A stretch of 64,000 nt of DNA from Verrucomicrobiota bacterium (GCA_049510745.1 JBEKYR010000004.1:96001-160000); one strand, 5' to 3'. Shown: positions 29,068 to 60,230, counted from the first letter of the stretch. The notes: generated by a model not told the origin, from the letters alone. Made by a program: numbers and translations.

Positions 29068-29658
29068 CTTTTACCCTCGTAAAGAGGCTTGGAGCCTCTC
29101 CCGCCGCCGTCGGACCAGAATCGAAAATATACGATTTTGTATACGTTTATTTTACGGTGACTGCTGCCGCCCGATGGGCATGCAAAACCCGGCGCGAGCA
29201 TCCATGCAAAGCGTTGATAATACAGTGCTTATGCAAGGATATCCCAAGGGGCCGCCGGTCGACGGCGGGTGCAACCATGCGGGATTCCTGGGTGCCCTTC
29301 GGCAGAGGCCGAAGATGGTTGCACAGGGGAAGATCTGTCGAAAACCAAATGCGTTGTGCCTTTGGCTGCCGGGAGGCCCACCGCAAGCAAGGACGCGGGC
29401 AGGCTGGCATATGCCAAATGTCATATACTCGTGCCGGGGCGTTTTCCGGCATATTTGCAGGCATAATTTATTAAAGCCGCTTGGATGTTTAACAGTTGTG
29501 CTTGCCTGAACCATTCGGGGCTAGCCGTCAATCGGCGAGTGGTCAGTTCAAACCACGGAGGGGTGCGGTGTCGAGAATCAGTTTCGCTTAATTTCCAAAA
29601 CGAGCCGCTTATGACCCCGTCAACTGCTCCGGTCGCGCGACAACAAGCCACCGCAGGC

Positions 29659-31416
29659 ATGCTCGCGGACGGATCGGGCCGCATCACCGACGCTCTCAGG
29701 CATGCGCGCTTCGGCGGTGCGTCGGCGGTCTTCGCACTGAACCTTCTGATTGGCCTGCAAGTTGGCGCTGCGTCCGACGAAATGCCGACCGTGCGCTTCA
29801 CGGACATCACGAAGGAAGCCGGCATCACGTTCGTTCATGTAAACGGCGCTTATGGCGAAAAGCTGTTGCCGGAAACGATGGGCGGCGGTGTGGCCTTCTT
29901 TGATTTCGATGGCGATGGCAATCAAGATTTGTTGTTTATCAATTCCTGTTACTGGCCGTGGCAAACGCCCGAAGGCAAGCCGCCGCCCACGATGGCGCTT
30001 TATCACAACGATGGCCACGGTCACTTCACCGATGTGACGAAAGGTTCGGGGCTGGACGTGAGTTTTTACGGCATGGGTGTGGCTATTGGAGATTACGACA
30101 ACGACGGTCTGGACGACGTGTTCATCACCGCCGTCGGCGGCAATCATTTGTTTCACAACGAAGGCCACGGGAAATTTCGTGATGTTACCAGGGAAGCCGG
30201 ACTTGCGGGTTCCACCGGAGATTGGAGCACCGGCGCGGCCTTTGTGGACTACGACAACGATGGAAAGCTCGATCTCTTCGTCTGCAATTACGTCCAATGG
30301 TCTCCGGAAATTGATCACGCCGCCACGTTTGTTTACCCAAAAATCGGACGGGCTTACGGTCCGCCCCGCAATTTCGCCGGCACCTTTCCCAAGCTTTATC
30401 ACAACGACGGCAACGGGCACTTCACCGATGTCTCGGCCGCAGCCGGCATCCAAATCAGAAGCCCGGTGACCGGCCTGCCGGTGGCGAAATCATTGGCTGT
30501 GGCACCGGTGGACGTGGACAACGACGGCTGGATTGATCTGATCGTCGCGAATGACACAGTGCAGAATTTCTTGTTTCACAACGAACACAATGGAACCTTC
30601 AAAGAAATCGGGGCGCGTTCCGGAATTGCCTATGATGCCTACGGCTTGACTCGCGGCGCGATGGGAATTGATGCCGCGCGTTTCCGGGATGATGACACAC
30701 TGGGCATCGCAATTGGGAATTTCGCCAACGAAATGAACGCGCTTTATGTGGCTCAGCGGGACGCCCTGGTGTTCGCCGACGAGGCCACCAAGGAAGGACT
30801 GGGTGAGCCCAGCCAAAAACTTTTGAAGTTCGGACTCTTTTTCTTCGATTACGATCTCGATGGGCGTCTCGACGTGCTCACCGTAAACGGACACCTGGAG
30901 CCTGACATCAGCCGTGCGCAGCCGGACCAGCAGTATCGGCAGCCAGCGCAATTGTTCTGGAACCGGGGCGACAGCCTGCGTTCGGGATTCGTGGTGGTTC
31001 CGCCGGAGAAATGTGGTAGTGATCTGCTCAAGCCGATCGTCGGACGCGGTTCGGCCTATGCCGATATTGATGGCGACGGCGATCTCGACGTGGTCATCAC
31101 GCAGATCGGAGGGCCGCCGTTGCTGTTGCGCAACGACCAAAATTTGGGGCACCACTGGATCCGTCTGAAACTGGTCGGGACGAAAAGCAATCGCGATGCG
31201 ATCGGCGCCTGGATCAAAGCGCGCGTCGGCGGCCGGACACTGTGGCGGCAGGTGATGCCTACGCGCGGTTACCTGTCCCAATCCGAACTCCCGGTGACAA
31301 TCGGCTTGGGCAATCTTGACAAGGTGGACAGTCTGGAAATCCATTGGCCCTCGGGCATAATCCAGAAGGTGACTCCGTTGATTGATCGCTTGACGACTGT
31401 GACCGAGATCCCATAA
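29659..31416 (+). CDS. CRTAC1-like FG-GAP/ASPIC-UnbV protein #1 (start uncertain)
   Basis: Repeated D.D.DG..DL motifs, ETMGGGVAFFDFD, GRG.A..D.D.DGD.D, SNRDAIGA, GYLSQS....GLG. Confidence 0.9.
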   Translation: MLADGSGRITDALRHARFGGASAVFALNLLIGLQVGAASDEMPTVRFTDITKEAGITFVHVNGAYGEKLLPETMGGGVAFFDFDGDGNQDLLFINSCYWPWQTPEGKPPPTMALYHNDGHGHFTDVTKGSGLDVSFYGMGVAIGDYDNDGLDDVFITAVGGNHLFHNEGHGKFRDVTREAGLAGSTGDWSTGAAFVDYDNDGKLDLFVCNYVQWSPEIDHAATFVYPKIGRAYGPPRNFAGTFPKLYHNDGNGHFTDVSAAAGIQIRSPVTGLPVAKSLAVAPVDVDNDGWIDLIVANDTVQNFLFHNEHNGTFKEIGARSGIAYDAYGLTRGAMGIDAARFRDDDTLGIAIGNFANEMNALYVAQRDALVFADEATKEGLGEPSQKLLKFGLFFFDYDLDGRLDVLTVNGHLEPDISRAQPDQQYRQPAQLFWNRGDSLRSGFVVVPPEKCGSDLLKPIVGRGSAYADIDGDGDLDVVITQIGGPPLLLRNDQNLGHHWIRLKLVGTKSNRDAIGAWIKARVGGRTLWRQVMPTRGYLSQSELPVTIGLGNLDKVDSLEIHWPSGIIQKVTPLIDRLTTVTEIP

Positions 31417-31439
31417 TGAAATTTTGCGGCTAATCGCTT

Positions 31440-32759
31440 ATGAACGACTACATCGAACGGGTGGTGAATCTGCTCGATCCTGCCCTGAACCGGATCCATA
31501 ACATGACGCTTGAGCAGGCCCAGCAGCGAGTCCTCTCAGGTCAACCCGGCGCTGTGCGGGAAATCGACGGCTCCTTTGCATTGGTTGCGCGCGAGGGCAA
31601 GACCGTTCGAATGGCGCGCTCGATGGACCGGCCGATGCGTTACTTTTTGGCCAAGCGCGCCGAAGGACCGGCGCTCATTGTCGCCGATCGGATCGATGCC
31701 CTATTCAACCAGCTCAGGGCGGAAGGGCTTGAAGGACAGTTCCATCCCAGCTACACGCGAATGGTGCCGGCGCATTATTTGGTTGAACTTCAGCTCATTG
31801 GATGTCCCGATCCCGATCCGATCTACACACGTTATTTTGCGCCGCAACGCGATTCGCTTTCGGCCGATCTGGATGAGATTGGCCGGAGGTACATCGGCGC
31901 GCTGGCGGATGAGATTGCAAAGTGGCTGAGGCGAATTCCGCCGATGGAACCGATCGGCGTCGCGTTCTCGGGCGGCGTGGACAGCGGCGCCGTTTTCCTC
32001 GTGACGTATCATGTCCTGCGGCAATTGGGAATGAGTCCGGGCCGGCTTAAAGCGTTTACCTTGAGTTTGGGCGAGGGGCCGGATTTGCAGCAGGCGCGCG
32101 ACTTTCTGGAACGGCTGGGCCTGGGCTTGTTTCTTGAACCGATCGAAGGCGATCTGGCGTCACTGGACATCACCGAGACGCTTCGCGTGATTGAAGATTA
32201 CAAACCGCTGGATGTGGAGTGCGCTTCGATGGGCCTTGCGCTGTGCGGCGGCGTCCGCGCGCGTTATCCGCAGTGGAAGCATCTCGTTGATGGCGACGGC
32301 GGAGACGAGAACTTGAAAGACTATCCCATCGAGGAAAATCCGGAGCTGACCATCCGCAGTGTAGTGAACAATTTGATGCTTTATCAGGAAGGCTGGGGTG
32401 TGGGCCGCATCAAACATTCACTCACTTACAGCGGCGGGTTGAGCCGGAGCTACTCCCGGACCTATGCCCCGGCCCGCCATTATGGCTTCGAAGGCTTCAG
32501 CCCGTTCACTCGTCCGAACGTCGTTGAAGTGGCGGAGGGCATTCCGTTTGCCGCCCTGACCGGGATGTCGGTGGAAAAGCTTTATGCGCTGAAAGGTGAA
32601 ATCGTCGCGCGCGGCGTCAAGGCCGTCACCGGTCTCGATTTCCCGGTATTTCCCAAGCGCCGATTCCAGCACGGCGCCGTTGACATGGAACGCCTGCGAC
32701 AACACGCTTCCGGCCGGGAATCCGAATACCGAAAGAGCTTCCTGGCGCTTTATAATTAA
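31440..32759 (+). CDS. Asparagine synthetase-like ATP-dependent amide ligase (no N-terminal Cys)
   Basis: IDGSFA...AR relic of the Ntn domain; PP-loop FSGGVDS; DGDGGDE; SPF; K..FQHG. Confidence 0.85.
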   Translation: MNDYIERVVNLLDPALNRIHNMTLEQAQQRVLSGQPGAVREIDGSFALVAREGKTVRMARSMDRPMRYFLAKRAEGPALIVADRIDALFNQLRAEGLEGQFHPSYTRMVPAHYLVELQLIGCPDPDPIYTRYFAPQRDSLSADLDEIGRRYIGALADEIAKWLRRIPPMEPIGVAFSGGVDSGAVFLVTYHVLRQLGMSPGRLKAFTLSLGEGPDLQQARDFLERLGLGLFLEPIEGDLASLDITETLRVIEDYKPLDVECASMGLALCGGVRARYPQWKHLVDGDGGDENLKDYPIEENPELTIRSVVNNLMLYQEGWGVGRIKHSLTYSGGLSRSYSRTYAPARHYGFEGFSPFTRPNVVEVAEGIPFAALTGMSVEKLYALKGEIVARGVKAVTGLDFPVFPKRRFQHGAVDMERLRQHASGRESEYRKSFLALYN

Positions 32760-32807
32760 GGCGGAAACATCCGGTTGAACGACGGATGATTTGGAAACGC
32801 CGCCTGG

Positions 32808-33767
32808 TCATTTGCCGCCGCACTCCGGACACTGGACCGCGAGCTCAGTTTGTTGTGACAGATTGACGGCGTGAATTCGTTGGCGCCGTTTTTCCAGGCA
32901 CGCCGGGCATTTTGAAAACCGGCGCAGGTCCCAAGTGTCGGCGAAGACCCGTCCGCTTCCTGCAATATTGAGAGCCAGCTCTTGAGCTTTTTCCAGGGTG
33001 GAAAGACGCGGCGGCGCGTACTCACCCGTCTCCATTAAGCGCTCCAGCGCGCCGTTTCCGGCCCGGGTCGGAATCAGCGAAACCACGTTCGCACCGCAGT
33101 GGAACGCGAACTCGGCGGATTTGACTGCCCAATCCAGCCCTTCTGTTTCGTCCATAAACGGCGGTTTCACGAGGACGAAGGCGCGGACGAAGATTGCGTT
33201 CTCGCGCAGGAATTCCGCCGCGCGAACAAAATGGTCCGGGGAAAATCTCTTGTTCAACCGGGGCAGCACTTGCGGATGCACCGTTTCCAACCCCAGCGCA
33301 ACTTCGAGCGAGCCGGGCAGCAAGTCGCGAAATCTCAGGGCCTTTTCCCCCACCAGTCGCGGGTGTGACTCAATCACGACGTGCTCCGCCGATGACACTG
33401 CCAGCGCAATCGCGGAATAATCCCCGGGCGGTATGGCGGCGGCGTCGAAAAAACTGCCGCTGTTGTACAGTTTGATCTGCTTCGGGCTGCCCTCCAGCCG
33501 CGACAGCGCGTAACGGATCTGTCCGGGAATCGCGCCGAGGGGAACGGTTTGGGTCGTTGTGTTCTTCCACAAATCGCACATCAAACAACGCCACGGGCAT
33601 TCCTTGTTCGTCAGCCAAATGACGCCCGAACTCACGATGCGCCCCGCGCGTGTCCGCTCCTGCTCGAGGAAAAAGCCGTGCGGCCTGAACGGATCGACGC
33701 GGTTGCGCTGCGGGCGAAGCGCGGTAATCCATGCAGTCTGCTCGCGGTCTGAAAAAACTGGATGCAT
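32808..33767 (-). CDS. Radical SAM enzyme, RaSEA/archaeal Elp3-like subfamily
   Basis: CPWRCLMC triad; KLYNSGSFFD, ESHP, EVALGLET, LVKPPF motifs; C-terminal CPAC...CPEC. Confidence 0.85.
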   Translation of the reverse strand: MHPVFSDREQTAWITALRPQRNRVDPFRPHGFFLEQERTRAGRIVSSGVIWLTNKECPWRCLMCDLWKNTTTQTVPLGAIPGQIRYALSRLEGSPKQIKLYNSGSFFDAAAIPPGDYSAIALAVSSAEHVVIESHPRLVGEKALRFRDLLPGSLEVALGLETVHPQVLPRLNKRFSPDHFVRAAEFLRENAIFVRAFVLVKPPFMDETEGLDWAVKSAEFAFHCGANVVSLIPTRAGNGALERLMETGEYAPPRLSTLEKAQELALNIAGSGRVFADTWDLRRFSKCPACLEKRRQRIHAVNLSQQTELAVQCPECGGK

Positions 33768-33870
33768 TGCCAAAGGACGGTGATTCTATCCGGCTCGGAA
33801 CCGTTTGAAAATGAGATTCGCCCGTGCCAGGGTTTTAGGGAAGCATCAGCCCCGATATCAGCGGTTGAAA

Positions 33871-33915
33871 TGTTCAAAATGCAAACCCGGAGGATTTGTT
33901 TTGCATATTTGAACA
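33871..33915. promoter_or_regulatory. AT-rich inverted repeat in the divergent radical SAM/lytS promoter
   Basis: TGTTCAAAATGCAAA ... TTTGCATATTTGAACA (one-base bulge). Confidence 0.55.
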
Positions 33916-33950
33916 GATGGCTTTTATCATAACGCCAGCCGGCCAGGAAC

Positions 33951-35039
33951 ATGAGAATCAACGAGACCCTGGGAAAACGCGGAATCCGATGGCTGTTGGG
34001 ATTCGTCTTTTGGACGTTCATCGGCCTGTCGTTTGCCTTTCAGTTTTATATTTCCAGCGCGAAGGCCGGTCTGGATGTGAGCTGGAGGCAGGCGGTCAGC
34101 TACGCGCTGGGCGATTGGTATGTTTTTGCCCTGTTGTCCATTCCGGTCACCTCGCTCGCGCGGCGGTTTCGTTTTGAATCCGGAACCCGGGTCAAAAGCG
34201 CCGCCGTGCATGTATCCGGCAGCATCGCGTTCTCGCTGGCGTACATGGTTTTGCGCGCCTGGGTTGGGAGATGGCAAAGCGGCGGCAGTTTCTCCGAGGC
34301 CTTCCGGCCGTTGCTGGTGAAGACCTGGCATTTCAACCTGTTGATCTACTGGGTCATTGTTGCAGTGAGTTTCGCTTTTGACTATTACCGCAAATACCGC
34401 GAACGCGAGTTAAGCGCGGCGGAACTGCAGAAACAACTCGCCCACGCGAAACTGCAGGCGCTGCAAATGCAACTGAACCCGCATTTCCTCTTCAACAGCC
34501 TCCACTCGATCTCCGCGCTGATGCACGAGGATGTCGAGCGGGCCGACAGCATGATTGCAAGGTTGAGCGACCTGTTGCGCGCCGCGCTCGACAGCTCTGA
34601 CACACTGGAAGTCCCCTTGCGCCAGGAGTTCGATCTGCTTGAACGATACCTCGCCATCGAACAGATTCGTTTCGGTGACCGGCTGGATGTGAAGATCGAT
34701 GCGCCCCCGGAAATCCTGGACGCGCAGGTGCCGAATCTGATCCTGCAACCGCTGGTCGAAAATGCGATCCGCCACGGCATCGAGCCGCGGGCAAAGCGGG
34801 GACGCGTTGAACTGCGCGCTCAACGGGCGGACGGCACCCTGACCTTGGAAGTGTCTGATAACGGGCCGGGATTGCCGTCCCGCGAACCGATCAACGAAGG
34901 CGTCGGCTTGTCCAACACGCGAACGCGATTGCGGACCCTTTACGGCGAGGCCCACAGTTTCGAGCTTCGCCAGTCGCCCGAAGGCGGACTGCTCGTCCGC
35001 CTGACCATTCCTTTTCGAACCGCGAACAAACCCTTATGA
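33951..35039 (+). CDS. LytS/YehU-family sensor histidine kinase
   Basis: N-terminal TM helices; QLNPHFLFNSL, LQPLVENAIRHG, V.DNGPG, GVGLSN.R.RL. Confidence 0.95.
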   Translation: MRINETLGKRGIRWLLGFVFWTFIGLSFAFQFYISSAKAGLDVSWRQAVSYALGDWYVFALLSIPVTSLARRFRFESGTRVKSAAVHVSGSIAFSLAYMVLRAWVGRWQSGGSFSEAFRPLLVKTWHFNLLIYWVIVAVSFAFDYYRKYRERELSAAELQKQLAHAKLQALQMQLNPHFLFNSLHSISALMHEDVERADSMIARLSDLLRAALDSSDTLEVPLRQEFDLLERYLAIEQIRFGDRLDVKIDAPPEILDAQVPNLILQPLVENAIRHGIEPRAKRGRVELRAQRADGTLTLEVSDNGPGLPSREPINEGVGLSNTRTRLRTLYGEAHSFELRQSPEGGLLVRLTIPFRTANKPL

Positions 35040-35794
35040 AGATCCGCACCCTCATCGTAGATGACGAATCGCTGGCGCGCAACCGGCTCCGCCAATTGCT
35101 CGAGAACCAACCGGACGTTGAGCTCGTTGGTGAATGCGCGGACGGCCGTGAGGCGGTGGCGACGATCCAGAAACTGAAACCAGACCTCATTTTTCTCGAC
35201 ATCCAAATGCCGGAACTGGACGGGTTCGGCGTGGTGCAAGAGATCGCCGCGGACTGCGCACCGGTCGTGGTGTTCGTGACGGCCCATGACAAATTCGCGT
35301 TGCGCGCTTTTGAGATCCATGCGGTGGATTACCTGTTGAAGCCATTCGATCGCGAGCGGTTTCAGAAAGCATTGCACCGCGCGGTCGAGCACGTAAAGCA
35401 TCACGGCGACGGCGAACTGATCGAGCGGCAGGCCGCTTTGATCGCCGAGCTGAAGTCCCCGAAGATCACCGACCGTCTGGCTGTGAAATCGGGCGGGCAC
35501 ATTGCCTGGTTGAAGCTTGAGGACGTGGACTGGATCAGCGCCGCCGACAATTATGCCGAGTTGCACGTTGGCCCGAAATCGCATTTGCTGCGCGAGACGC
35601 TGGCCAGCTTGGAAACAAGACTGGCGCCCGACAAGTTTGTCCGCATCAGCCGCTCCGTCATCGTCAATCTCGGGCGCATCAAAGAACTGAAGCGGTTGTT
35701 TTACGGTGGTTACGAACTGATGCTTCAGGACGGCACCAAGCTGACCTTGAGCCGGCGTTATCGGGATAAGTTGCGGCAACTGGGCATTGATTAA
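35036..35794 (+). CDS. LytTR-family response regulator
   Basis: IVDDE, FLDIQMP, FVTA, DYLLKP receiver domain; FVRISRS.IVN...L.LSRRY LytTR domain; 4-bp overlap with the kinase. Confidence 0.95.
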   Translation: MKIRTLIVDDESLARNRLRQLLENQPDVELVGECADGREAVATIQKLKPDLIFLDIQMPELDGFGVVQEIAADCAPVVVFVTAHDKFALRAFEIHAVDYLLKPFDRERFQKALHRAVEHVKHHGDGELIERQAALIAELKSPKITDRLAVKSGGHIAWLKLEDVDWISAADNYAELHVGPKSHLLRETLASLETRLAPDKFVRISRSVIVNLGRIKELKRLFYGGYELMLQDGTKLTLSRRYRDKLRQLGID

Positions 35795-35843
35795 GCCGTC
35801 TCTATCCCGAAGGAGCGGCGGGGAACACTGGACCTTCGGCGGA

Positions 35844-35909
35844 CCTTTTGTCCCCAAATCCGAACCGCTTATCCCAATGAACGTGTGTTCCTCTCCGCTG
35901 TTGTACATT
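35844..35909 (+). promoter_or_regulatory. Candidate LytTR boxes (21-bp period) plus -10 upstream of the porin operon
   Basis: CCTTTTGTCCC (35844) and CCGCTTATCCC (35865), then TACATT at 35904. Confidence 0.6.
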
Positions 35910-36026
35910 TCTTGTCCATCACACGACAATTTAAAGCTATCCGATATGATGAATCATGAATTTTGCATCGGTCTGCGTCTGCGGTTTGCCGTTCAACCAA
36001 AACGATCGGGGCCGCTCACCCGCCAA

Positions 36027-37436
36027 ATGAAAAAGAAACTCACGGTCGGGGCCATGCTCACGGCTGTCACCGGAACGCTCGTTGCGCAAGACAAACCGTT
36101 CCTCCAGGGGGGAACGGGGCAAATCCCTCCGCCTCCCGAGCCATCCGGGGTTGCCGAGTCTGCCGCCGGCGGGGGGATGGCGGCGCCCACTGCCGCGGCC
36201 AATCCTGTGGAAGAGCTTTTCAACGGCCGGGTTCCCGGCGCGTTGGCGCAGGGCGAGTTCAACCTCAACGTGCGCTTGCGTTATGAACAGGTGGATCAGG
36301 ATGGCACGCCTGGCATTGCCAAAAACTCGTATGCACCCACGTTGCGGACACGATTCGGCTACACCTCGGCGCCACTGGATGGATTTCAAGGCATGTTGGA
36401 AGCGGTGAATGTCTCCGTGCTGGGTCCGGAACACAATTACAACGCCGCCGGATCCAACGGCCAGGGCGCCCGTCCGTCCGTAGGTGACCCGCCGTTGACC
36501 CGGCTGGATCAGGCATGGCTGGCGTACGCGCACAGCAATTACTTCGGGATCAAAGTGGGCCAGCAGCAGATCAACCTGGACAACCAGCGTTTCATCGGCG
36601 ATGCGGGCTGGCGGCAGAACATGCAAACCTATGACGCGGCGAAGGTGCAAGGCTCGCCGGTCAAGGATCTCGACCTGGATTACTTCTATGTCTGGGACGT
36701 TCATCGCGTCTTCGGCGATGTGTCCGGCCTGCCTGCGGCTAACGGGGACTTTGACTCGCATTCGCACCTCATCAACGTCTCGTATTCGGGATGGGAATAT
36801 GGCCGGTTCGTCGGCTACGCCTATTTGCTGGACCTGCACAACGCCGCCGGAGACGCGAACTCCTGCGCCACTTACGGCGGCTACTTTGCCGGCGCCGCGC
36901 CCGTCAGTCAGAAAGTGACGATTGATTACCGCGCTGAGTTCGCCTGGCAGGATCAATACGCCGACAATCCGCAGAGATACAGTGCGGAATATTGCAACTT
37001 TGAACTCGGCGCCAACATCAAACCGGTGGCCTTGGGCGCAGGCTATGAGCTGCTGGGCAGCGGCGCCAACTCCGGCGCGGGCGGCGGACGAGTCGGCTTC
37101 AAAACTCCGCTGGCGAGCCCGCATCCATTCAACGGCTGGGCGGAGGTCTTCGTCACCCACCCGAACAACGGTTTGCAGGACATTTATGAATACGCACAAG
37201 TAACTTTGCCGGGGCAGATCCCGGTTCGTTTCCTCTATCACAAGTATGATGCCGACTGCGGCGGTGGCGACTACGGCCAGGAATTTGACGTGATGGCGTC
37301 CAAAAAATTCGGCAAATACTGGTCGGCCCTGGTTGAATGCGCCGATTATCTTGGTAAAAACGCAGCCGCGCCGGCGCTCCCCGCGGCGGGAGCGAACATT
37401 CAAAGATTCTGGGCCTCGGTGGAATTCAACTTTTAA
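36027..37436 (+). CDS. Outer-membrane beta-barrel (alginate export/AlgE-like family)
   Basis: Signal peptide; RLRYE, G.Q.INLDNQRFIG..GWRQN.QT.DA, F.TPLA..H.FNGWA; C-terminal Phe. Confidence 0.85.
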   Translation: MKKKLTVGAMLTAVTGTLVAQDKPFLQGGTGQIPPPPEPSGVAESAAGGGMAAPTAAANPVEELFNGRVPGALAQGEFNLNVRLRYEQVDQDGTPGIAKNSYAPTLRTRFGYTSAPLDGFQGMLEAVNVSVLGPEHNYNAAGSNGQGARPSVGDPPLTRLDQAWLAYAHSNYFGIKVGQQQINLDNQRFIGDAGWRQNMQTYDAAKVQGSPVKDLDLDYFYVWDVHRVFGDVSGLPAANGDFDSHSHLINVSYSGWEYGRFVGYAYLLDLHNAAGDANSCATYGGYFAGAAPVSQKVTIDYRAEFAWQDQYADNPQRYSAEYCNFELGANIKPVALGAGYELLGSGANSGAGGGRVGFKTPLASPHPFNGWAEVFVTHPNNGLQDIYEYAQVTLPGQIPVRFLYHKYDADCGGGDYGQEFDVMASKKFGKYWSALVECADYLGKNAAAPALPAAGANIQRFWASVEFNF

Positions 37437-37453
37437 CGTGACATCATGAATCC

Positions 37454-40324: not shown

Positions 40325-40331
40325 TTGAGTT

Positions 40332-42197: not shown

Positions 42198-42648
42198 GCG
42201 TTGGCGCGCGGATTTCCGAGTGGCGGATTTGTCCGCCGAGGTTTGCCGTCCAGATCAGGATAAGGCCTACGATCACTGTTGCGAACAACATCGTGATCCC
42301 GAACCAACGAGCGGGGGTTCTGTCCCGAAAGAGAAGCAATCCGGCCAATGCGATGACGCCGAGCAGGCTGCAACCTGCCAATGCCAATGCTGCCACCGTT
42401 TGATGCCGTTCAAGAATGGTATCTACAAATCCCGGCAAGCCCTTCACGGCGCCTGACGCTGGTTTCCCCGTCAGATACAGAGGCAAAGTCAAGACGGCTG
42501 CCGCCACGATTGTTGCCAGCGCGATCTTTTGGTCTTCAGAATTGCCGCGCCACAGACCGATGATCAGCAAGACGAATGCAAAGAGAATTGCCATAATTGG
42601 CGCGTGACACAGGAGCAAATGAATGTGAGCGGCGGTGACTGTGTTCAT
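42181..42648 (-). CDS. Small 4-TM His-containing membrane protein (DUF2231-like)
   Basis: HIHLLLCHAPI, YLTG, ERH, TANLGGQIRH.EIR. Confidence 0.65.
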   Translation of the reverse strand: MNTVTAAHIHLLLCHAPIMAILFAFVLLIIGLWRGNSEDQKIALATIVAAAVLTLPLYLTGKPASGAVKGLPGFVDTILERHQTVAALALAGCSLLGVIALAGLLLFRDRTPARWFGITMLFATVIVGLILIWTANLGGQIRHSEIRAPTPTDAR

Positions 42649-44380: not shown

Positions 44381-44383
44381 CCC

Positions 44384-46354: not shown

Positions 46355-46383
46355 AATGTTCGTTGACCTTTCTTGAATCATCG

Positions 46384-47517: not shown

Positions 47518-47536
47518 GGTATGCATTCCTCCGGGT

Positions 47537-52765: not shown

Positions 52766-52834
52766 AGATTAGCGGTGGAACCGTGATGAAAAAAAGAATG
52801 CCGGGCCGGACGGCTCGTTTTCTGGGATAAACGG
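52766..52834 (-). promoter_or_regulatory. Candidate LytTR boxes (21-bp period) plus -10 for the leftward 9-gene operon
   Basis: Minus strand CCGTTTATCCC (52834-52824), CCGTCCGGCCC (52813-52803), then TAATCT (52771-52766). Confidence 0.6.
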
Positions 52835-52934
52835 AGTGTATCAAGCTGGAAATGACAATTCGTCCTGCTCCGTCCTGCTTTATGTGCATTTCACTTTCCC
52901 TTTCTTCTCATTCGAGGTTAAGTAGGCGCCGGAT

Positions 52935-55900
52935 ATGTCAAAGCGAATCGTTTTAATCGCCCTTGGAGTCGGAGTCATCTTGATTTTGGCGGTGATTGTC
53001 CTTCTCTCTCGCCAATCCCGAAGTGCTCAGGAGCAATTCACGCGCTTGATGGTTCGTGGCAATGGTTATTTGGAAAAGGGGGACGCGACCAACGCCATCA
53101 GCGCTTGCTTGCAAGTCGTGAAGCTGGCGCCGGAAAATCTCGACGCGCGGCTGAACCTCGCCAACGCGTATTTGCTCGCCGGAGATTTGCCGGGTGTGAT
53201 CGAGCAATGCCGGCAGGCGGTGGCTATCGACCATAACAGTGCCGCGGCCTACTACCTGATGGGTTGCGCTTATCTGCGGCAAAATCAGGCGGAGCGAGCC
53301 GTCCAGTCGTTTCAACAATCGAAACAGATTGATCCCGCCGTTACTGCGCTGGACTTCCAACTTGGTTTGGCCCAAGCCGCCCTGAGCCATGTGCAGGACG
53401 CGATCAGCCAATTTCAAACGGTCGTTCGTTTCGATCCGGACCATCCTTCAGCGCACTATCAACTCAGCAAGCTTTATCAACATGAGGGCCGCCTCGACGA
53501 CGCGGCGCGTGAGATGCAGATGCACCAGGAAGTTTTGGCTAAACATGCCGCCAACGCAAGTGGCCCGGCTGCTTTCGAACGATGCAAATATACGCAACCC
53601 AGAATCGCCTTTGTGCTGGAACAACCGGATCGCCGGGGAGTTCCCGTGCATTTCGTGGACGCCACCGCCACGGCATGTGCGCTAGCTTCCAACTATCATG
53701 CGCCGCTGGCGGTATTGGACCTCAACCATGACGGACGCAACAGCTTGTTCGTTTGCGAAGGCGACAAAGGTTTTCGCGTTTTGAACAATCAAAACGGGCG
53801 GTTTGAACCATTGAGTGAACTTTTGCCGGGCCGGTCGGGGGCGGTGTATCAACGTGCCTTGGTTGGTGACGTGAACAATGATCGTTTCGAGGATGTGATC
53901 GTTCTGGGCGAGCAAGTGTCGCACGCGTTCAAATTTGCCACCAATGGCCAGGCACGAGAGGTCACGACGTTTGCCGGCCTGAAGAATCTAAAAGCTCGCG
54001 ACGGCCTGCTGGCTGACCTGGACTTTACTGGAAAACTTGATTTGCTGGCGGTTCTGCCGGACGGAACCGGCCTGAGCCTTTACCAAAATCTCGGGAATTT
54101 TTATTTTCAAAACCAGACCAATTCGGGTCTGCCGGCGGCGGTGGACGGTGCCGCGCATGTTGCGGTCGAGGATTGGAACAACGAGGACGTGCCCGGCGTT
54201 TTCGTGACGCGTGCCGGCAAGCCGCCTCTCTTTTTCCCAAAACAGCGCGCCGGAACTTTTACCGCAACGAATACGCCCCCGGACTGGCCCGTGGGCGAAT
54301 GTATTGCGACGGGGGATCTGAACAATGATCTTCGACCCGACCTGGTCGTGGCGGGCGAGCGCAACCTGGAAATCGTTTTCGGCGGCCTGAAAGAGCGGAC
54401 AACCATTCCTCTGGATGGGCTGCGGGTAAAGGGGCTTCTGCTCGTGGACTACGACAATGACGGCTGGCTGGATATCATCGCCTACGGCAATGGCGTGCGG
54501 GTGTGGCGAAACTTGGGGAAGGCGGGATTTGTTGATGTGACCAAGGAGCTGGGCCTCGACCAAATCAATTCCGTGGACGCACTGGTGGCCGCAGATATCG
54601 ACAACGACGGGGCCACCGATCTGGTGTTGAGCGGGCCCAACGGCTTGCAGTTCTGGCGCAACGACGGCGGCAACGCCAACCGGCAATTGAAATTGCACCT
54701 GGCCTGCAATCGCTCGAACGCGAGCGCACTGGGGGTGCGCGTTGAGCTGGCTGCCGGAAATTGGAGGACGCTTCGCACGTTGCAGCAGCTTCCACTTGAG
54801 ATCGGCGTGGGGAAACACGACAAACTTGACGCGCTAAAAATCCGCTGGTTCGACACCGCGAGCACCCTGGTGGACGTGCCCGTTCAAACGAATCAACTGA
54901 CCGTGGATGAATTGACCGTGCCAACCGGCTCCTGTCCTTATCTGTACGCCTGGAACGGAAAACGTTTCCAGTTCGTGACCGACATCCTTGGCGCCGCCCC
55001 GCTCGGCTTGCCCGCGAGCAAAACGCGTTATTCCGACGCTGACCCGGAAGAGTTTCTCGCCTTGGGAGATGATCAAAAATGTCTGCCGAAGGACGGCCGC
55101 TACGAACTTCGAATCACCGAAGAGCTTCGGGAAGTGCTTTACCTCGACGAAGCCAAGCTGGTCGTGGTGGATCATCCTGCCGGCACGCTCGTTTGTCCGG
55201 CGGGCAAATTGGCGCCCGGCAGGCCGTTTCCACCGCACGGACTCTGGACGTTGCGTCCGCTGGCCCCACTTAAACGCGCGACCCGTAGCGACGGTCTTGA
55301 TGTGACGAGAGCTTTGAGCGCGACGGATGGCGAGATGGTTTCGCCGGTCCGCTTGCGCGAGCCCCAACTCCGCGGATTGGCTGAGCCTTTTTCCGTCACG
55401 ATGGATTTCGGCGAACTGGGAACGGATCTTCCGCTGGTTCTGGTTTTGAACGGCTGGTTGCGTTTCGGGGGCGGCATGGCAAATGTGGCCGCGTCGCTGG
55501 ATCCGAATCTCCCGTTTCCCTTCCCCACCCTTGAAACCGAATTGAGCGATGGTTCCTGGACGAATGTGGATGTCGTCGTCGGCGCGCCCTGCGGAAAAAC
55601 CAAAACGATTCTGGTTGATCTGGAGCACAAGCTTCCGCCGGGCGCCCGGCGGCTGCGACTGACCACCGCCTTTGAAATTTACTGGGATTCCGCCTTCCTC
55701 GCGGAAAAAATCACGGCTGAAAATAACCGTCAGGTCACTCTCGCGCCGGACCAAACGGATTTGCATTGGCGGGGATTTAGCGAGTTCATGCCGTTGCCCG
55801 ACTGGCTGCCGCTCACGCCGGATTACGAGAAGGTTCGATCCGACCCGCCCTGGCGGCGCACGCCCTCCGGCTGGTGCACACGCTACGGACCGGTGGACGA

Positions 55901-56213
55901 GCTGATTGCAAACAGTGACGACGCTCTGGTGTTGTTAAACGGCGGTGATGAGCTTGCGCTGTCTTTCAAAGCCGATCGTTTGCCGGTGAAGCCTGCAGGT
56001 TTTGTTCGGGACTTCTATCTTTACGTTGTCGGCTGGGACAAGGACGCTGATTTCCATGTCGCCCAGGGCTGGCGTGTCGAACCGTTGCCGTTTCACGGAA
56101 TGGACGATCAAAAATACGCTCATCCATCTCCGCCGGCGGCCGAGAAGGATTGGGTTGAGAAATACAACACGCGTTGGGTGGGGCCAATGGTGTTCAGCAA
56201 GCGGGTAAAATAA
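52935..56213 (+). CDS. TPR + FG-GAP + ASPIC-UnbV protein with C-terminal SCPYLY domain (#4)
   Basis: TM anchor, TPRs, D.+NDG..D repeats, SN.SALG, GSCPYLYAWNG, E...LD, GWDKDAD. Confidence 0.88.
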   Translation: MSKRIVLIALGVGVILILAVIVLLSRQSRSAQEQFTRLMVRGNGYLEKGDATNAISACLQVVKLAPENLDARLNLANAYLLAGDLPGVIEQCRQAVAIDHNSAAAYYLMGCAYLRQNQAERAVQSFQQSKQIDPAVTALDFQLGLAQAALSHVQDAISQFQTVVRFDPDHPSAHYQLSKLYQHEGRLDDAAREMQMHQEVLAKHAANASGPAAFERCKYTQPRIAFVLEQPDRRGVPVHFVDATATACALASNYHAPLAVLDLNHDGRNSLFVCEGDKGFRVLNNQNGRFEPLSELLPGRSGAVYQRALVGDVNNDRFEDVIVLGEQVSHAFKFATNGQAREVTTFAGLKNLKARDGLLADLDFTGKLDLLAVLPDGTGLSLYQNLGNFYFQNQTNSGLPAAVDGAAHVAVEDWNNEDVPGVFVTRAGKPPLFFPKQRAGTFTATNTPPDWPVGECIATGDLNNDLRPDLVVAGERNLEIVFGGLKERTTIPLDGLRVKGLLLVDYDNDGWLDIIAYGNGVRVWRNLGKAGFVDVTKELGLDQINSVDALVAADIDNDGATDLVLSGPNGLQFWRNDGGNANRQLKLHLACNRSNASALGVRVELAAGNWRTLRTLQQLPLEIGVGKHDKLDALKIRWFDTASTLVDVPVQTNQLTVDELTVPTGSCPYLYAWNGKRFQFVTDILGAAPLGLPASKTRYSDADPEEFLALGDDQKCLPKDGRYELRITEELREVLYLDEAKLVVVDHPAGTLVCPAGKLAPGRPFPPHGLWTLRPLAPLKRATRSDGLDVTRALSATDGEMVSPVRLREPQLRGLAEPFSVTMDFGELGTDLPLVLVLNGWLRFGGGMANVAASLDPNLPFPFPTLETELSDGSWTNVDVVVGAPCGKTKTILVDLEHKLPPGARRLRLTTAFEIYWDSAFLAEKITAENNRQVTLAPDQTDLHWRGFSEFMPLPDWLPLTPDYEKVRSDPPWRRTPSGWCTRYGPVDELIANSDDALVLLNGGDELALSFKADRLPVKPAGFVRDFYLYVVGWDKDADFHVAQGWRVEPLPFHGMDDQKYAHPSPPAAEKDWVEKYNTRWVGPMVFSKRVK

Positions 56214-56235
56214 CCGCGCTCCAGCGAGCATCCAA

Positions 56236-59200
56236 TTACTTTCCGTGATTCTCCAGCGACCCGGACGAATCCGTCACCTGGCCGCTTTCATTGATGGTGA
56301 CCTTTGCCGCGCCGTTGGGCAGGTCGCTCTCGGTAATCTTGCCGCCGGGCCAGCGGATCCAGACTTTCGTCGGCGGTTCCGGACAACCCAGGACCTGTAC
56401 GACGCTGTCTTGCGACCAGTAACCGGAGCCGCCATGGATTTCGCGCGCAGGGCCGAAGCGCTGGCCGAACTCCAGGCGGATGGCGGCGCCGATGGCGTGG
56501 GGATTCCCCGGCGGCCCGATTAATCGCACACTCAACCCCGGTTTGGCGCCCCTGTTCTTGAATAACTTGGTTTCTGCGCCGTTTTGGGCCACGGCCAAGT
56601 CCACCCGGCCGTCGCCATTGAAATCGCCCACCGCCGCTCCGCGCTGTTCGCCGTAAATGATGATGCCCGATTCCTGTCCCGGCATGGCCTCCAACTTCCC
56701 GCCGCCCAGCCCGCGCAAGAGCAAGCCCCGCCCCGCATCCTGGCGAGGCTGGTCCGGGCGCACTTGAAAAAAGTTTTGGCTTAGAAAAACGTCTTCGTTT
56801 CCGTCGCCATCGAAATCCGCCACGTTGACGCCGAAGGCTGGGGCCAGTTGCGCCGGATACGGCAACGGGACGGCCTCGAAACCGTTCGTGCGGTTGAAAA
56901 ACACCGTGGACGCCAGCGTCGTGGCCTCCACGCGGCTGGCCGCCTTGGGCAGCGCCGCCAGGACTTTCTCGATGGAGGCTTCGCTGTATTCCTTGTGGGT
57001 GGGAAATGCGGTCACGAAAAACGGAAACGCCACCGCCATCGCGGACCGGTCGCGCATGGGCACGACCGCGTTGAGGAGCGGATCATAGACCGTTTCAATC
57101 AAGTCATCCACGCCGGTGTCGGAGAAATCGCCATAATACAACGCCGCCGGATGTTGGGCGCTGGCCCGATAATCCGAGTTCCATCCCCAGTTGCCGGCAA
57201 TGATGTCCAGCCGGCCGTCGCCATCAATGTCTCCCGTCGTCACCCCGCGCCACCAACCGGTGTATTGGTCCAGGCCGAGCTCCCTGGTAATTTCGTGCAA
57301 GTGGCCCTTTTGATTCTTGAAGACGCGAATCGGGCCCCACTCGCAGGCCAGGATCAAGTCGGGAAACCCGGCCCCGTCCAGATCGCTCCAGACCGCGCCG
57401 TTTACCAGGCCGACGTTTTCCAAGGCCCGGGTGTTTTCCAGGTCGAGCACAAGCTGTTTTCCATCGTCGCGATAAATCTTCGAGCTGGCCGCCTCGGGAT
57501 AATGGCCGGGAATCACGCGCCCGCCTACAAACACGTCGAGATGCCCGTCGCCATAAACGTCGGCCACGGCCACCGGCCCGGTGCTGGCCCGCTGTCCGGG
57601 AAAATTGGCAATCGGATCCAGGCGGTTCGAATTGCACGAAAATACCCAACCCGACGGGAGGGCGCCGCGGATTTCATAGCTGGCCTGGCCGACCACCCAG
57701 AAAGGGGCGCCGTTGGGTTGAATCCAGCCCACGATACTCGTCAAATCGTCGGCATTGGTCAGCGCCGATTCCAGACGCACGAACCGGTCGTTGCCTTCCG
57801 CGGCGAACGCCTCCAATCGCCCCCCGCGCGGCGAGCCGATGACCAGCGCCTCGTGCCCGTTGGTGTCGCAGCTTACCCAGGCGACCCCGGGGCCGTCACA
57901 GCTCAGCCTGTGGGGCAATAGCGGCTGAACCTGGAAGTCGTCAAAATCCGCCTTCTGATACTGGTGCCCAATGAGCGAACTGACATCCTCAAACAGAGGC
58001 TTGAGCGGTTCGGCTGGCGGGGCCGGTTTGACGGAACTTGCGCCCGCTTCGTCTATTTCATAGATGCGGTTCGGGCGGACATCGCGGACGGCGCTGACCT
58101 TGCCATCGCGCCAGGTCACTTCGAGGGCCATGCTCTGGCTTTTGCCCGCGGCAAACACGCGCGCCGGGTCCGAGCCGGAAAGATATAACCCGCCACTCTT
58201 CACTTCCGCGCTTTGCATCGGCACGGCGCCGTTGAACAGTTTGATTTTCGCCCCGATGCCCTGTGAATTGGGCGCCCGCCCTTTTACGCGCACGGCCACC
58301 CGCGGCGCGGTTGCGTTATTGCGATAGATTTCGGCCGGCCCGTTAAAGCCGTTGACCACCAAGTCCAACTTGCCTCTTCCGTCCAAATCGCCCAAGGCTA
58401 AGCCCGTGCGGATGCCCGGGTCCGCAAGCCCCCATTGCAGGCCAAAGTCCTGGAATTGCAGCCCCGGCTTCCCCAAATTCCGGAAGGCCACAATGGGGTT
58501 CGTGAGCGGCTCCCGCATGGAATTGTTTCGCAGCAGCCCCTCGGTGAGGCGTTCTTGCTTCGAGCGCTCGATCTCATGGCCATCGGGTCCGATCTTGGGC
58601 GGCACCAGACGCTTGGCCCGCTCCAACTCCAGAGCTTTGGCTGACGCATCGCGGTCCTGCACGTCCCGAAAGAAACCGGTAATGACCAAAATGTCATCCC
58701 AGCCATCGAGGTCCACGTCCAGAAAGACCGGTTGCCAGGACCATTCGGCGGCGGCCACACCGGCGAACGCGGCGATTTCTTCAAAAGTCCCGTCGCCGCG
58801 GTTGTGAAACAGCGTGTTGCGCGTCACTTGAGGGGGGTCCTCTGCGCCCGGACCGAACAAATAACTCATCTCGTCGAGATTCTGCTGTTTCCGCACACTC
58901 CAGCTTCGGCTCACCATGTCCGAAACGATGAAGTCCTCATGGCCATCGTGGTCGAGGTCGGCAAAATCCACCCCCATGGAACTGGCGCTGGTGTGGCGCT
59001 GGGTGGTTTTCGGAACGGCGCGAAAATGTCCGTGCCCGTCATTGATCCAAAAACGATCGGGCGTCCAAAAATCGTCGCAGACATAAAGGTCCGGGGCGCC
59101 GTCGCCATTCACATCGTGGAATTGCGCGCCATTGGCCCAATCTTTCGGCGCTTCGGTGAGCGGTTTTCCGGCCTCGTCCAGAAAAGCGCCGTTGGTCCAG

Positions 59201-60036
59201 GAGACCGGCGAAAAATTCCCGTGGCCGTCGTTCAGGTAGAGCTGTCCGGGTTCTCCATACGGATAAGCCTGATTGTGAGCGGTCGTCACCTCATTCTGCA
59301 ACCGCGGCGGAACCTTGAGTTGGCCGTTGACCACAAGGAGTGTGGCGTCTGCCCGGTCCTGCACCGAAGAGCTTTTATAATCAGCCACGTAAAGGTCGAG
59401 CGTCCCGTTGCCGTCCACGTCCGCCAGCGCCAGCGTGGCCGCGCAATGATCCGAGAGCAAGCCGGCGGAACCGCTGATGTCCGCAAACGTGCCATCGTGC
59501 TTGTTGGTGAACACCAGCACTCCGTGTCCCATGGTGCCGACCAGCAGATCCGGCCAGCCGTCGCCGTTGATGTCGGCAAAAACCGCTCCCCGGCAAATGT
59601 AGTTGGTGCAAACGATGCCCGACGCCGCGGTCACGTCTTTGAACTTGAAGCCGCCAAGGTTTCGGTAAAGCGCGCAATGTCCATCCAACGCGCAAAGGAA
59701 AATGTCCGGCAGGCCGTCTTTGTCGAAATCTCCCACCGCCACCCCCGAGCCTTCGGCCAGGATCCGGTTTTCGGCGATCGCGCGTTCACTCACCTGGTTG
59801 GTGAAATAGAGGCCCGTTTCGTCGGGCAGCAAGCGAGTGAAACCGGGCTTGCCCGGGGGCTCCGGAGGAAGCTCGGCCCAACGAAAACCCGTCTCCTCAT
59901 GCCATTGAAATCCCGCGGCGATGGCCGGCGCTTCCCAAAACAGGACCGCGAGAAGAGCCAACCACAACAATCCGCATCGGCGATTTTCCGTCGCGATGGA
60001 TTTGATTCTTACGGAGACACTCACACTGGAACGCAT
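56236..60036 (-). CDS. Tandem double FG-GAP/ASPIC-UnbV protein (#5)
   Basis: Two FG-GAP blocks, each followed by N...IGA.I.....G.GY.S; N-terminal hydrophobic signal. Confidence 0.88.
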   Translation of the reverse strand: MRSSVSVSVRIKSIATENRRCGLLWLALLAVLFWEAPAIAAGFQWHEETGFRWAELPPEPPGKPGFTRLLPDETGLYFTNQVSERAIAENRILAEGSGVAVGDFDKDGLPDIFLCALDGHCALYRNLGGFKFKDVTAASGIVCTNYICRGAVFADINGDGWPDLLVGTMGHGVLVFTNKHDGTFADISGSAGLLSDHCAATLALADVDGNGTLDLYVADYKSSSVQDRADATLLVVNGQLKVPPRLQNEVTTAHNQAYPYGEPGQLYLNDGHGNFSPVSWTNGAFLDEAGKPLTEAPKDWANGAQFHDVNGDGAPDLYVCDDFWTPDRFWINDGHGHFRAVPKTTQRHTSASSMGVDFADLDHDGHEDFIVSDMVSRSWSVRKQQNLDEMSYLFGPGAEDPPQVTRNTLFHNRGDGTFEEIAAFAGVAAAEWSWQPVFLDVDLDGWDDILVITGFFRDVQDRDASAKALELERAKRLVPPKIGPDGHEIERSKQERLTEGLLRNNSMREPLTNPIVAFRNLGKPGLQFQDFGLQWGLADPGIRTGLALGDLDGRGKLDLVVNGFNGPAEIYRNNATAPRVAVRVKGRAPNSQGIGAKIKLFNGAVPMQSAEVKSGGLYLSGSDPARVFAAGKSQSMALEVTWRDGKVSAVRDVRPNRIYEIDEAGASSVKPAPPAEPLKPLFEDVSSLIGHQYQKADFDDFQVQPLLPHRLSCDGPGVAWVSCDTNGHEALVIGSPRGGRLEAFAAEGNDRFVRLESALTNADDLTSIVGWIQPNGAPFWVVGQASYEIRGALPSGWVFSCNSNRLDPIANFPGQRASTGPVAVADVYGDGHLDVFVGGRVIPGHYPEAASSKIYRDDGKQLVLDLENTRALENVGLVNGAVWSDLDGAGFPDLILACEWGPIRVFKNQKGHLHEITRELGLDQYTGWWRGVTTGDIDGDGRLDIIAGNWGWNSDYRASAQHPAALYYGDFSDTGVDDLIETVYDPLLNAVVPMRDRSAMAVAFPFFVTAFPTHKEYSEASIEKVLAALPKAASRVEATTLASTVFFNRTNGFEAVPLPYPAQLAPAFGVNVADFDGDGNEDVFLSQNFFQVRPDQPRQDAGRGLLLRGLGGGKLEAMPGQESGIIIYGEQRGAAVGDFNGDGRVDLAVAQNGAETKLFKNRGAKPGLSVRLIGPPGNPHAIGAAIRLEFGQRFGPAREIHGGSGYWSQDSVVQVLGCPEPPTKVWIRWPGGKITESDLPNGAAKVTINESGQVTDSSGSLENHGK

Positions 60037-60230
60037 GAACACAATGAAACAGGAATATTCATCCTGGCGCAAACAGATTGTTGGGTGCAAGTCCAAGCGC
60101 CTCCTGCCGAAACCGCAACATGACACTCAGGGCGTTTGGCCAAGCCAATGGGCGAATTGAAAGGCCGCCGGGCACTTTGCCGTTGTGCAAAAGCCGGCCG
60201 TGAACGCATTGTTCGGCAGCCCGGACAAGT

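Follow-up and report, generated by a model that had tools for sequence, protein, structure and literature searches.

A widespread ligase, radical SAM and cytochrome system with an accessory hydrazine synthase-like operon in a verrucomicrobial gene cluster

Results

Co-inheritance of the core and the accessory operon

A stretch of 64,000 nucleotides from a Verrucomicrobiota bacterium (GCA_049510745.1, JBEKYR010000004.1:96001-160000; referred to as the window, and part of contig C4 of the host genome) contains a cluster of 19 open reading frames (ORFs) at 29485-60126, which is a real, widespread and uncharacterised system. Co-occurrence across genomes showed that its core consists of an AsnB-like ATP-dependent amide ligase without the N-terminal glutaminase cysteine (31440-32759, plus strand; PF00733), a radical S-adenosylmethionine (SAM) enzyme resembling RaSEA and queuine lyase (QueL) (32808-33773, minus strand; TIGR01210 below cut-off), a membrane-anchored pentaheme c-type cytochrome with a tetratricopeptide repeat (TPR) tail (37454-40324, plus strand; five CxxCH motifs, c554 and TPR matches) together with a CRTAC1-like partner and, mostly, a halogenase-like flavoprotein. 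A clade-III operon homologous to hydrazine synthase (HZS) was shown to be an accessory module that relies on the core and has a tendency to occur in genomes lacking the flavoprotein. We consider it highly probable that these modules are functionally linked.

The host genome is 5.6 Mb in size and 94% complete, and close homologues carried Verrucomicrobiota/Limisphaerales labels. A reading made from the sequence alone (the sequence-only reading) had described about 19 tightly packed genes as one co-regulated system of cytoplasmic enzymes and a membrane and periplasmic heme chain, the cellular locations here and below being by-eye judgements. The packing was confirmed, with intergenic distances of -17 to 48 nt and two exceptions of 177 and 255 nt. 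The strong co-occurrence of ligase, radical SAM enzyme, pentaheme-TPR cytochrome and HZS-like operon supports an enzymes-plus-heme-chain system, and in the neighbourhood search that had been set beforehand as the test that could refute this reading, the homologues co-occurred across genomes. The system is, however, modular and nested, with modules mostly on different contigs; the 19 genes fall into at least six strand blocks, and the cluster is not a single operon. Any co-regulation is putative: counts of promoter-like and terminator-like sites between 29000 and 44000 stayed at chance level (6 versus 4.6 and 21 versus 20 in shuffled sequences, respectively), and no LytTR-type repeat common to the intergenic regions was found.

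Searches of 61 related genomes detected the ligase in 19, and the radical SAM gene in 18 of these 19 and in 0/42 of the others. A sample of 401 genomes of the order contained the ligase in 162 and an HZS-like beta-gamma protein in 55 (E<=1e-90). The latter were divided by identity, not by tree, into 38 genomes with a close protein (>=57%, clade-III-like) and 17 with a distant one only (40-46%, clade-I-like; ten heme motifs in the two examples checked). The ligase was present in 37 of the 38 clade-III genomes (15 families) versus 125 of the 363 others, and the sole clade-III genome without it (G512) had both the radical SAM and the flavoprotein gene. Nine of the 17 clade-I-only genomes carried the ligase and the association was not significant, which argues against genome size alone as the explanation. 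Clade-III operons were missing from 125/162 ligase genomes. An HZS-like gene (E<1e-100) was also found in 14 of 50 further ligase-bearing genomes of the Genome Taxonomy Database (GTDB), which represent 50 of 70 loci left and some of which may repeat the order sample.

In GTDB genomes (Verrucomicrobiota, Acidobacteriota and others) at least 563 stretches matched the ligase, and the best 80 of the 563 were used as ligase loci. The pentaheme-TPR cytochrome was close to the ligase in only 7/80 of these. By genome, it was present in 73 of 80 core-bearing genomes (79 with the ligase plus G512) versus 3 of 80 order-sample genomes without a listed ligase match, and one of these three carried the radical SAM gene. 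The CRTAC1-like protein FG2 (40332-42197, plus strand; Pfam), its usual neighbour, adjoined the cytochrome in 14/19 genomes fetched. Distant relatives of the cytochrome (30-45% identity) were found in 5/5 Acidobacteriota with the ligase, a comparison confined to ligase-bearing genomes. Within the cytochrome, H75, H93, H152 and H166 were invariant in 6/6 aligned rows, and its His-bearing membrane segments make b hemes possible.

The halogenase-like flavoprotein was a conserved member outside the set recognised from the sequence alone and is absent from the window; its nearest relative elsewhere in the host genome is only 24-27% identical. It was found in 14/38 clade-III genomes versus 41/42 HZS-free ligase genomes, the latter hand-picked from 116 and spread over 22 families, and in 2/9 clade-I-only ligase genomes. 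Counted by family, a flavoprotein-less genome occurred in 9/15 families with clade III versus 1/22 HZS-free families. Missing heme-copper-oxidase-family genes do not account for the loss of the flavoprotein, as 80/80 genomes tested have such a gene; the family includes nitric oxide (NO) reductases, and aerobiosis is therefore not proven by this count.

The ligase, the radical SAM gene and the HZS-like operon were physically linked in four metagenome loci and in three Opitutaceae genomes, which were selected because the linkage was visible and in which the flavoprotein was found in 0/3. In an Opitutales sample, 0/150 genomes besides the centre had the ligase or an HZS-like gene, so that this sample is uninformative on co-occurrence. 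A genome of another genus (G006) had the exact gene order of the window at 59-94% identity, and none of the three genes sought was found in G001, a genome of the window's own genus that is 89% complete.

The hydrazine synthase-like operon

The operon is encoded on the minus strand and begins with FG3, a CRTAC1-like protein (50940-52679; Pfam, and the CRTAC1 structure 9ETN at E 1e-15). It continues with the HZS alpha homologue (49480-50943), the beta-gamma fusion homologue (47537-49483), a Reg_prop-type beta-propeller (46384-47526; PF07494), a single-domain Rid/YjgF protein (45773-46381), the orphan solute-binding proteins 2 (44384-45763; PF13458) and 1 (43268-44380; PF13458) and a Tll0287-like (DUF3365) monoheme c protein (42672-43271; PF11845), and its last gene here encodes a DUF2231 membrane protein (42181-42648; PF09990 below cut-off). 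For the two Peripla_BP_6 binding proteins no permease or ATPase was found among the 19 genes. In 39 HZS-like loci (metagenome stretches of at least 10 kb, out of 80 matches listed) the near-constant Reg_prop propeller was present in 38, and binding protein 2 and FG3 in 37 each. Alpha was found in 35 of the loci, Rid and binding protein 1 in 21 and 20, respectively, and Tll0287 in 14, and the gene content of the operon is stable across these metagenome loci. Plasmid searches returned no match for the ligase and one distant match for the HZS-like protein, and atlas searches yielded nothing beyond unnamed family clusters.

The sequence-only reading had counted four c-type cytochromes with 10 CxxCH motifs, which holds (5, 1, 3 and 1 per protein), but two of the four had not been recognised as homologues of HZS alpha and beta-gamma. 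The 487-aa alpha homologue matched PF18582 and chain A of PDB 5C2V (E 8e-10), and has a single CxxCH at residue 447 with no Tyr after it; an equivalent of Tyr591 and the heme alpha-II domain are thus absent. The 648-aa beta-gamma homologue matched NF052342 (E 1.6e-51) and chains B and C of 5C2V. Neither protein reached the family cut-off (50 of 800 bits for NF052339, 175 of 1250 for NF052342). The beta-gamma protein combines a 7-blade propeller with a MauG/CCP-type di-heme domain, which gave a weak MauG match, and its CxxCH motifs lie at 44, 445 and 568, the first being an extra N-terminal heme motif. In the structure model the propeller superposed on 5C2V_B with a template modelling (TM) score of 0.89; the heme domain mostly had a model confidence (pLDDT) <50, and therefore no pocket geometry was read from it.

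Residue roles were taken from the accessible text of PMC12758564 and 10.1101/2023.01.22.525020. The window protein retains C498, corresponding to the third thioether Cys165 of heme gamma-I, in a column where Cys is the majority residue at <90% of 25 aligned rows. H627, the distal His of the bis-His heme gamma-II, was invariant in 25/25 rows, as were W487 at gamma-His144 (the MauG/CCP position) and Arg501, which replaces gamma-Asp168. The beta-loop Glu is replaced by Gln (PITQ versus PVCE).

The operon matches clade III of the HZS homologues in PMC12758564 (Hagglund et al., Genome Biol Evol 2025), a probable assignment made from gene order, heme count and identity and not from placement in the published tree. 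As far as the accessible text of that paper describes clade III, the shared features are a CRTAC1/FG-GAP gene upstream of a short alpha gene, which in turn lies upstream of a fused beta-gamma gene; one extra N-terminal heme motif in the fusion and an unconserved loop Glu; Trp at gamma-His144; the absence of Tyr591 and heme alpha-II; and two binding-protein genes of the ATP-binding cassette (ABC) type downstream (window 43268-45763). A third thioether Cys is named there for clade I, and the window protein has one too. The clade III description in that text does not include the Reg_prop, Rid or Tll0287 gene, a reliance on the ligase and radical SAM enzyme, the link to the cytochrome or the flavoprotein pattern. 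The main text contains none of the terms asparagine, radical SAM, DAHP, halogenase, chorism- and YjgF, nor Verrucomicro-, although its supplementary tables may list verrucomicrobial members. The authors judged clades I-III not to make hydrazine and, in the text available, left their function unassigned; the accessible part of PMC10732223 (Suarez et al. 2023) reports hzs-like genes and suggests a wider family with other substrates. The HZS-like operon is thus of a previously described kind without an assigned function. The view that no pathway of this composition had been characterised stood as regards function, while part of the system was already in print as HZS clade III.

Compared with the anammox enzyme HzsABC of Kuenenia (5C2V), the alpha, beta and gamma domains are homologous, heme gamma-I has three Cys and heme gamma-II is bis-His. 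The catalytic residues of both active sites are changed, the gene order is reversed and there are additional partner genes.

Ligase, radical SAM enzyme and flavoprotein

The ligase was modelled (pLDDT 87) as N-terminal nucleophile (Ntn)-like and PP-loop synthetase domains, with a TM score of 0.64 to beta-lactam synthetase and Z scores of 24 to AsnB and beta-lactam synthetase, 18.9 to TsnB9 and 7.2 to QueC. It aligned with AsnB only from AsnB residue 39, the segment with the N-terminal glutaminase Cys being absent, and reached 33 of 267 bits for the glutamine-hydrolysing AsnB family. A degenerate Ntn domain and a PP-loop SGGVDS motif are shared with Cys-less AsnB homologues (beta-lactam synthetase, the carbapenam synthetase CarA and, by fold, TsnB9), but identity is ~15-18% and no beta-lactam pathway genes lie nearby.

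The sole NCBIfam match of the radical SAM enzyme was TIGR01210 (RaSEA; 111.8 bits versus a cut-off of 212.15), and the sole significant PDB match of its profile was queuine lyase 6P78 (E 8.7e-8); QueL acts on a 7-deazaguanine derivative. Single-sequence PDB searches with the ligase and the radical SAM enzyme gave nothing significant. The CxxxCxxC motif (C57, C61, C64) was invariant in 69/69 rows. The radical SAM gene lay within 61 of the 80 ligase loci, on the ligase strand in 61/61; in the window it is inverted and convergent. A long open frame across the ligase in G516 proved not to be a radical SAM fusion.

The flavoprotein gene, like an FG-GAP gene, was found in 46/80 ligase loci and is usually the third gene of the ligase operon, normally after the radical SAM gene. 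The protein passed Pfam Trp_halogenase, and its best NCBIfam matches, all below cut-off, included QhpG, LodB, GoxB and the halogenase CmlS.

In about seven loci (L117, L137, L134, L119, L079, L138) a sulfonate/taurine-type ABC transporter adjoined the ligase operon. An RnfD/NQR2-family membrane gene lay between CRTAC1-like genes beside the ligase operon in L085 (15667-16551) and 20 other Acidobacteriota loci, an arrangement reminiscent of the enediyne unbU/unbV pair; a gene of this type was not found in the host genome.

The Rid protein and DAHP synthase

The Rid protein (202 aa) matched TIGR04444 with 25.9 of 325 bits (E 5e-6), and its longer relatives with 34-47 bits, far under the same cut-off. 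It has PAS where RidA-type structures have PAR, so that the Arg, an active-site residue in RidA, is replaced by Ser. Y78, F82, R84, C186, E193 and E195 were invariant in 17/17 family rows and common to the longer FkbO/Hyg5-like relatives. The window protein and the FkbO/Hyg5 chorismatases share the Rid fold and a Cys-Arg-x-Asp-Leu-Leu-Val-Glu motif; the latter are multi-domain, whereas the former is single-domain. E193 would correspond to Glu334 of Hyg5, which is catalytic according to the accessible text of PMC7170507, in a register taken from the end-point of a weak 5AG3 match (E 0.004).

A motif of 3-deoxy-D-arabino-heptulosonate 7-phosphate (DAHP) synthase was found in 10 of 65 HZS-like loci (at least 10 kb), some of which are close kin, and the Rid gene was present in all ten. 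Hidden Markov models confirmed seven of the ten, which represent two unrelated classes; the evidence for the other three is the motif. Multi-domain chorismatase-like relatives adjoin DAHP synthase in L107, L122 and L202. Among ligase-only loci, 3/89 were flagged: one was spurious, one was L122 again and one was L107, whose genome contains an HZS-like gene. In L107 (7418-9079) the DAHP synthase ORF runs on in frame into a receiver domain. The recurrence of DAHP synthase and a chorismatase-like protein points to a putative aromatic scaffold.

Remaining genes and surroundings

The cluster starts with FG1, a CRTAC1-like protein with FG-GAP and ASPIC/UnbV matches (29485-31416, plus strand; Pfam; likely start ATG 29611) and a paralogue of FG2 (76.5% identical; 88% DNA identity over 300 nt; paralogous stretches 29782-31287 and 40560-42065). 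Between the two lie, next to the ligase, radical SAM and cytochrome genes and all on the plus strand, a LytS-type histidine kinase (33951-35039; PF06580 and HATPase), a LytTR response regulator (35036-35794; PF00072 and PF04397) and an outer-membrane barrel of the alginate-export family with a C-terminal Phe (35787-37436; PF13372 just above cut-off; likely start ATG 36030). The LytS-LytTR-barrel-cytochrome block that lies between FG1 and FG2 was found in other genomes in one orientation (L061, L063, L076 and L090) or in the other (L026 and L089), which suggests recombination between the paralogues. Upstream of LytS (~33890-33910), a short motif with the consensus GGATTTGTTTGGCAT was shared by 80% or more of 13 upstream sequences and is a candidate regulator site.

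To the right of the HZS-like operon are a TPR and FG-GAP protein (52935-56213, plus strand; Pfam), with relatives in 31/80 ligase loci and 14/39 HZS-like loci, and FG5, a double FG-GAP/UnbV protein (56236-60126, minus strand; Pfam), with relatives in 11/80 ligase loci. Five FG-GAP/ASPIC-UnbV propellers had been read from the sequence: all five have FG-GAP repeats, but ASPIC/UnbV matches (Pfam) were found in four, the TPR-fused protein having none at E<=0.01. The barrel, the two orphan binding proteins, the LytS/LytTR pair and the AsnB-like, radical SAM and YjgF-like proteins were borne out by family matches.

A tRNA-Lys(CTT) gene at 28991-29067 borders the cluster, as the sequence-only reading had stated, but the association looks incidental, because the GC content of the cluster matches that of the genome (59.7% versus 60.3%), no second copy of the tRNA 3' end was found elsewhere in the genome and 0/36 related loci had a tRNA-Lys. 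On the same grounds, tRNA-targeted integration was unsupported. A second tRNA-Lys (TTT) lies at 3064-3139 of the window, 26 kb away. The genes at the left border (20326-28569), which have no evident connection with the cluster, encode RseP-like/TPR and sulfatase/phosphodiesterase-like proteins, SppA, an Xaa-Pro peptidase, HtpX and a dipeptide-epimerase-like enolase. To its right, 60315-63992 encodes an exported LamG/Ig-domain protein of 1225 aa, which has several paralogues in the genome and also borders the cluster in G006 (84% identity). Heterodisulfide-reductase-like genes (by eye) were found ~22 kb past the window (G000:C4 ~181700-194100, L154).

Discussion

A tentative reading of these data, to which we give rather less than even probability, is a nested co-inherited system that makes a chorismate-derived aromatic amide, with the HZS-like complex as oxidative step. 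The particular chemistry that follows (aryl amide, radical C-N cleavage, ring tailoring) is more doubtful still. The chorismatase-like Rid protein would act on chorismate to yield an aromatic acid, and some lineages would have recruited DAHP synthase to supply flux. The ligase would adenylate the carboxyl group and then couple an amino-acid amine, this nitrogen source being proposed because a glutaminase is absent. The radical SAM enzyme could then cut the C-N bond so that the amide remains, as RaSEA does after ArcS. In most genomes the ring might be halogenated or hydroxylated by the flavoprotein; in this genome, the periplasmic HZS-like complex would instead act on the ring as a di-heme oxidase of the MauG/peroxidase type. 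The product may serve as a cofactor or redox ligand of a pentaheme-TPR/CRTAC1 complex that is connected to the quinone pool. Its binding or sensing may be the task of the orphan binding proteins and LytS/LytTR.

Parts of this scheme have parallels. RaSEA acts on a lysine adduct made by ArcS in archaeosine synthesis (accessible text of PMC11298593), and the window enzyme belongs to the same region of radical SAM sequence space as RaSEA and QueL (6P78). Archaeosine synthesis by ArcS-RaSEA places the radical SAM step after that of an amino-acid-transferring partner; the window differs in that the partner is AsnB-like and not ArcS, the TIGR01210 cut-off is not reached, no tRNA transglycosylase is linked and the host is bacterial. 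No ArcS-like gene recurred among the conserved neighbours, genome-wide ArcS searches not being part of this comparison. Ammosamide biosynthesis, as described in the accessible text of PMC12715798, uses amino-acid nitrogen donors, and its cluster encodes both a flavin halogenase and an AsnB-like amidase; the pathway depends on peptide aminoacyl-tRNA ligases (PEARLs) and a peptide scaffold, neither of which was found in the window system.

Several findings weigh against the aromatic-amide proposal. Rid, radical SAM enzyme and ligase are all under the cut-offs of named families. Rid and DAHP synthase follow the HZS-like operon and not the core: Rid was found in 3/80 ligase loci (loci only) and only 21/39 HZS-like loci, and the host's DAHP synthase sits on another contig. 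The genome G006 holds the entire cluster, yet the radical SAM gene was not found in it. As for the apparent replacement of the flavoprotein, 14/38 clade-III genomes kept both flavoprotein and operon, G364 has neither flavoprotein nor HZS-like operon, the loss clusters by family (f72, f40, f45, f11), most flavoprotein-less families yielded no HZS-free control, and the 42 controls were chosen by hand from the 116. The flavoprotein is apparently cytoplasmic and the HZS-like complex periplasmic, so that replacement requires an exported intermediate. Acidobacteria often carry the ligase operon, and an HZS-like gene was found in only 3/12 tested. Since kin genomes are not independent, the Fisher values overstate the associations.

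The strongest rival, though unlikely in itself, is maturation of a protein cofactor. Here the flavoprotein and the HZS-like di-heme protein would be alternative maturases. Together with the ligase and the radical SAM enzyme they would introduce a quinone cofactor or modified residue into a CRTAC1-like or pentaheme-TPR protein, and this protein would then function in the periplasm as a dehydrogenase that supplies the quinone pool. The flavoproteins LodB, GoxB and QhpG versus MauG are such alternative maturases, and the tryptophylquinone maturation systems (MauG; QhpD/QhpG; LodB/GoxB) bring together a beta-propeller, a di-heme protein with an inter-heme Trp, a radical SAM enzyme and a flavoprotein. 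The flavoprotein resembles QhpG, LodB and GoxB as well as CmlS (below cut-off), the di-heme domain retains the MauG/CCP Trp and a weak MauG match, the complementary distribution of flavoprotein and HZS-like operon fits, and both the cytochrome and its propeller belong to the core. However, the flavoprotein passes Pfam Trp_halogenase, and heme gamma-II has the distal His of HZS (bis-His) where MauG has a Tyr at the second heme. A search of 7501 ORFs (25-700 aa) near the genes for a precursor of the type found in ribosomally synthesised and post-translationally modified peptides gave no conserved small ORF, and no small quinoprotein subunit was found. The window has a ligase, which those systems lack, and maturation offers no explanation for DAHP synthase or the Rid protein.

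It is improbable that the modules have separate functions and simply collect in shared large-genome lineages from soil and peat, at times on the same island. Their location mostly on different contigs, the shuffled gene order with at least six strand blocks in the window, the 125/162 ligase genomes without clade III and the 8/17 clade-I-only genomes without the ligase would fit this. It is difficult to reconcile with a cytochrome found in 73/80 versus 3/80 genomes despite unlinked positions, with the clade-III nesting (37/38), or with linkage that recurs in a second order where 0/150 other genomes have either gene, even though the three genomes were picked for visible linkage.

Slightly less probable again is N-oxide chemistry, in which beta-gamma reduces NO or nitrite to hydroxylamine that is detoxified or used by the ligase for a hydroxamate or N-N product, as in TsnB9. 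C498 and the bis-His heme gamma-II are retained and TsnB9 is structurally related to the ligase (Z 18.9), but it ranks under AsnB and beta-lactam synthetase, Arg, Trp and Gln stand in place of gamma-Asp168, gamma-His144 and the beta-loop Glu, respectively, and neither the flavoprotein pattern nor DAHP synthase is accounted for. In the Opitutaceae genome G061 an NrfA-like pentaheme nitrite reductase gene, which would suit such chemistry, and a formamidase/amidase-like gene flank the cluster (L145:6766-8256, L146:15304-16329).

An archaeosine-like modification of 7-deazaguanine or another nucleoside by the ligase and radical SAM pair, unconnected to the heme proteins, is very unlikely: 7-deazaguanine derivatives are the substrates of both nearest characterised relatives of the radical SAM enzyme, but neither a transglycosylase nor a Que gene cluster appeared repeatedly among the conserved neighbours, QueC gave a Z score of 7.2 versus 24 for AsnB, and the pair tracks a periplasmic cytochrome. 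A true hydrazine synthase, and hence anammox capacity in a verrucomicrobium, has a negligible probability: adjacent genes are homologous to all three HZS subunits, but the Tyr591 equivalent and the heme alpha-II domain are absent, gamma-Asp168, gamma-His144 and the beta-loop Glu are replaced, the scores fall far short of both family cut-offs, and PMC12758564, in its accessible text, rejects anammox for clades I-III.

Returning to the aromatic-amide proposal, we suggest, as an unlikely but consequential extension, that the non-anammox HZS relatives are periplasmic di-heme tailoring oxidases, interchangeable with a flavin halogenase, in a widespread aromatic-amide-cofactor pathway (ligase, radical C-N lyase and chorismatase-like enzyme) for a new quinone-linked cytochrome/CRTAC1 complex. 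In the open-licence literature we found no description of the whole system and no function for bacterial UnbV/CRTAC1 proteins; the cytochrome-ligase coupling, the clade-III nesting and the flavoprotein complementarity are new here, no describing paper having been found in that literature. Homologues of hydrazine synthase were catalogued in 2023-2025 without a function; the locus bears on the question of where the enzyme came from and supplies genetic partners, which together with the apparent-replacement pattern narrow the chemistry of the HZS relatives to testable options. Carriers are spread across many soil and freshwater bacteria and include apparently cultured ones such as Opitutaceae bacterium EW11 (L106) and Granulicella sp. 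L46 (L092), and hzs-like matches in such genomes should not be taken as anammox. Since the core is common (162/401 genomes of the order; at least 563 GTDB stretches), what is at stake is a metabolite or cofactor of bacteria that abound in soil and peat. If the proposal is true, it would represent a new cofactor system, would give bacterial CRTAC1/UnbV propellers their first function, in redox chemistry of the respiration type, and would reveal the activity from which hydrazine synthase was recruited.

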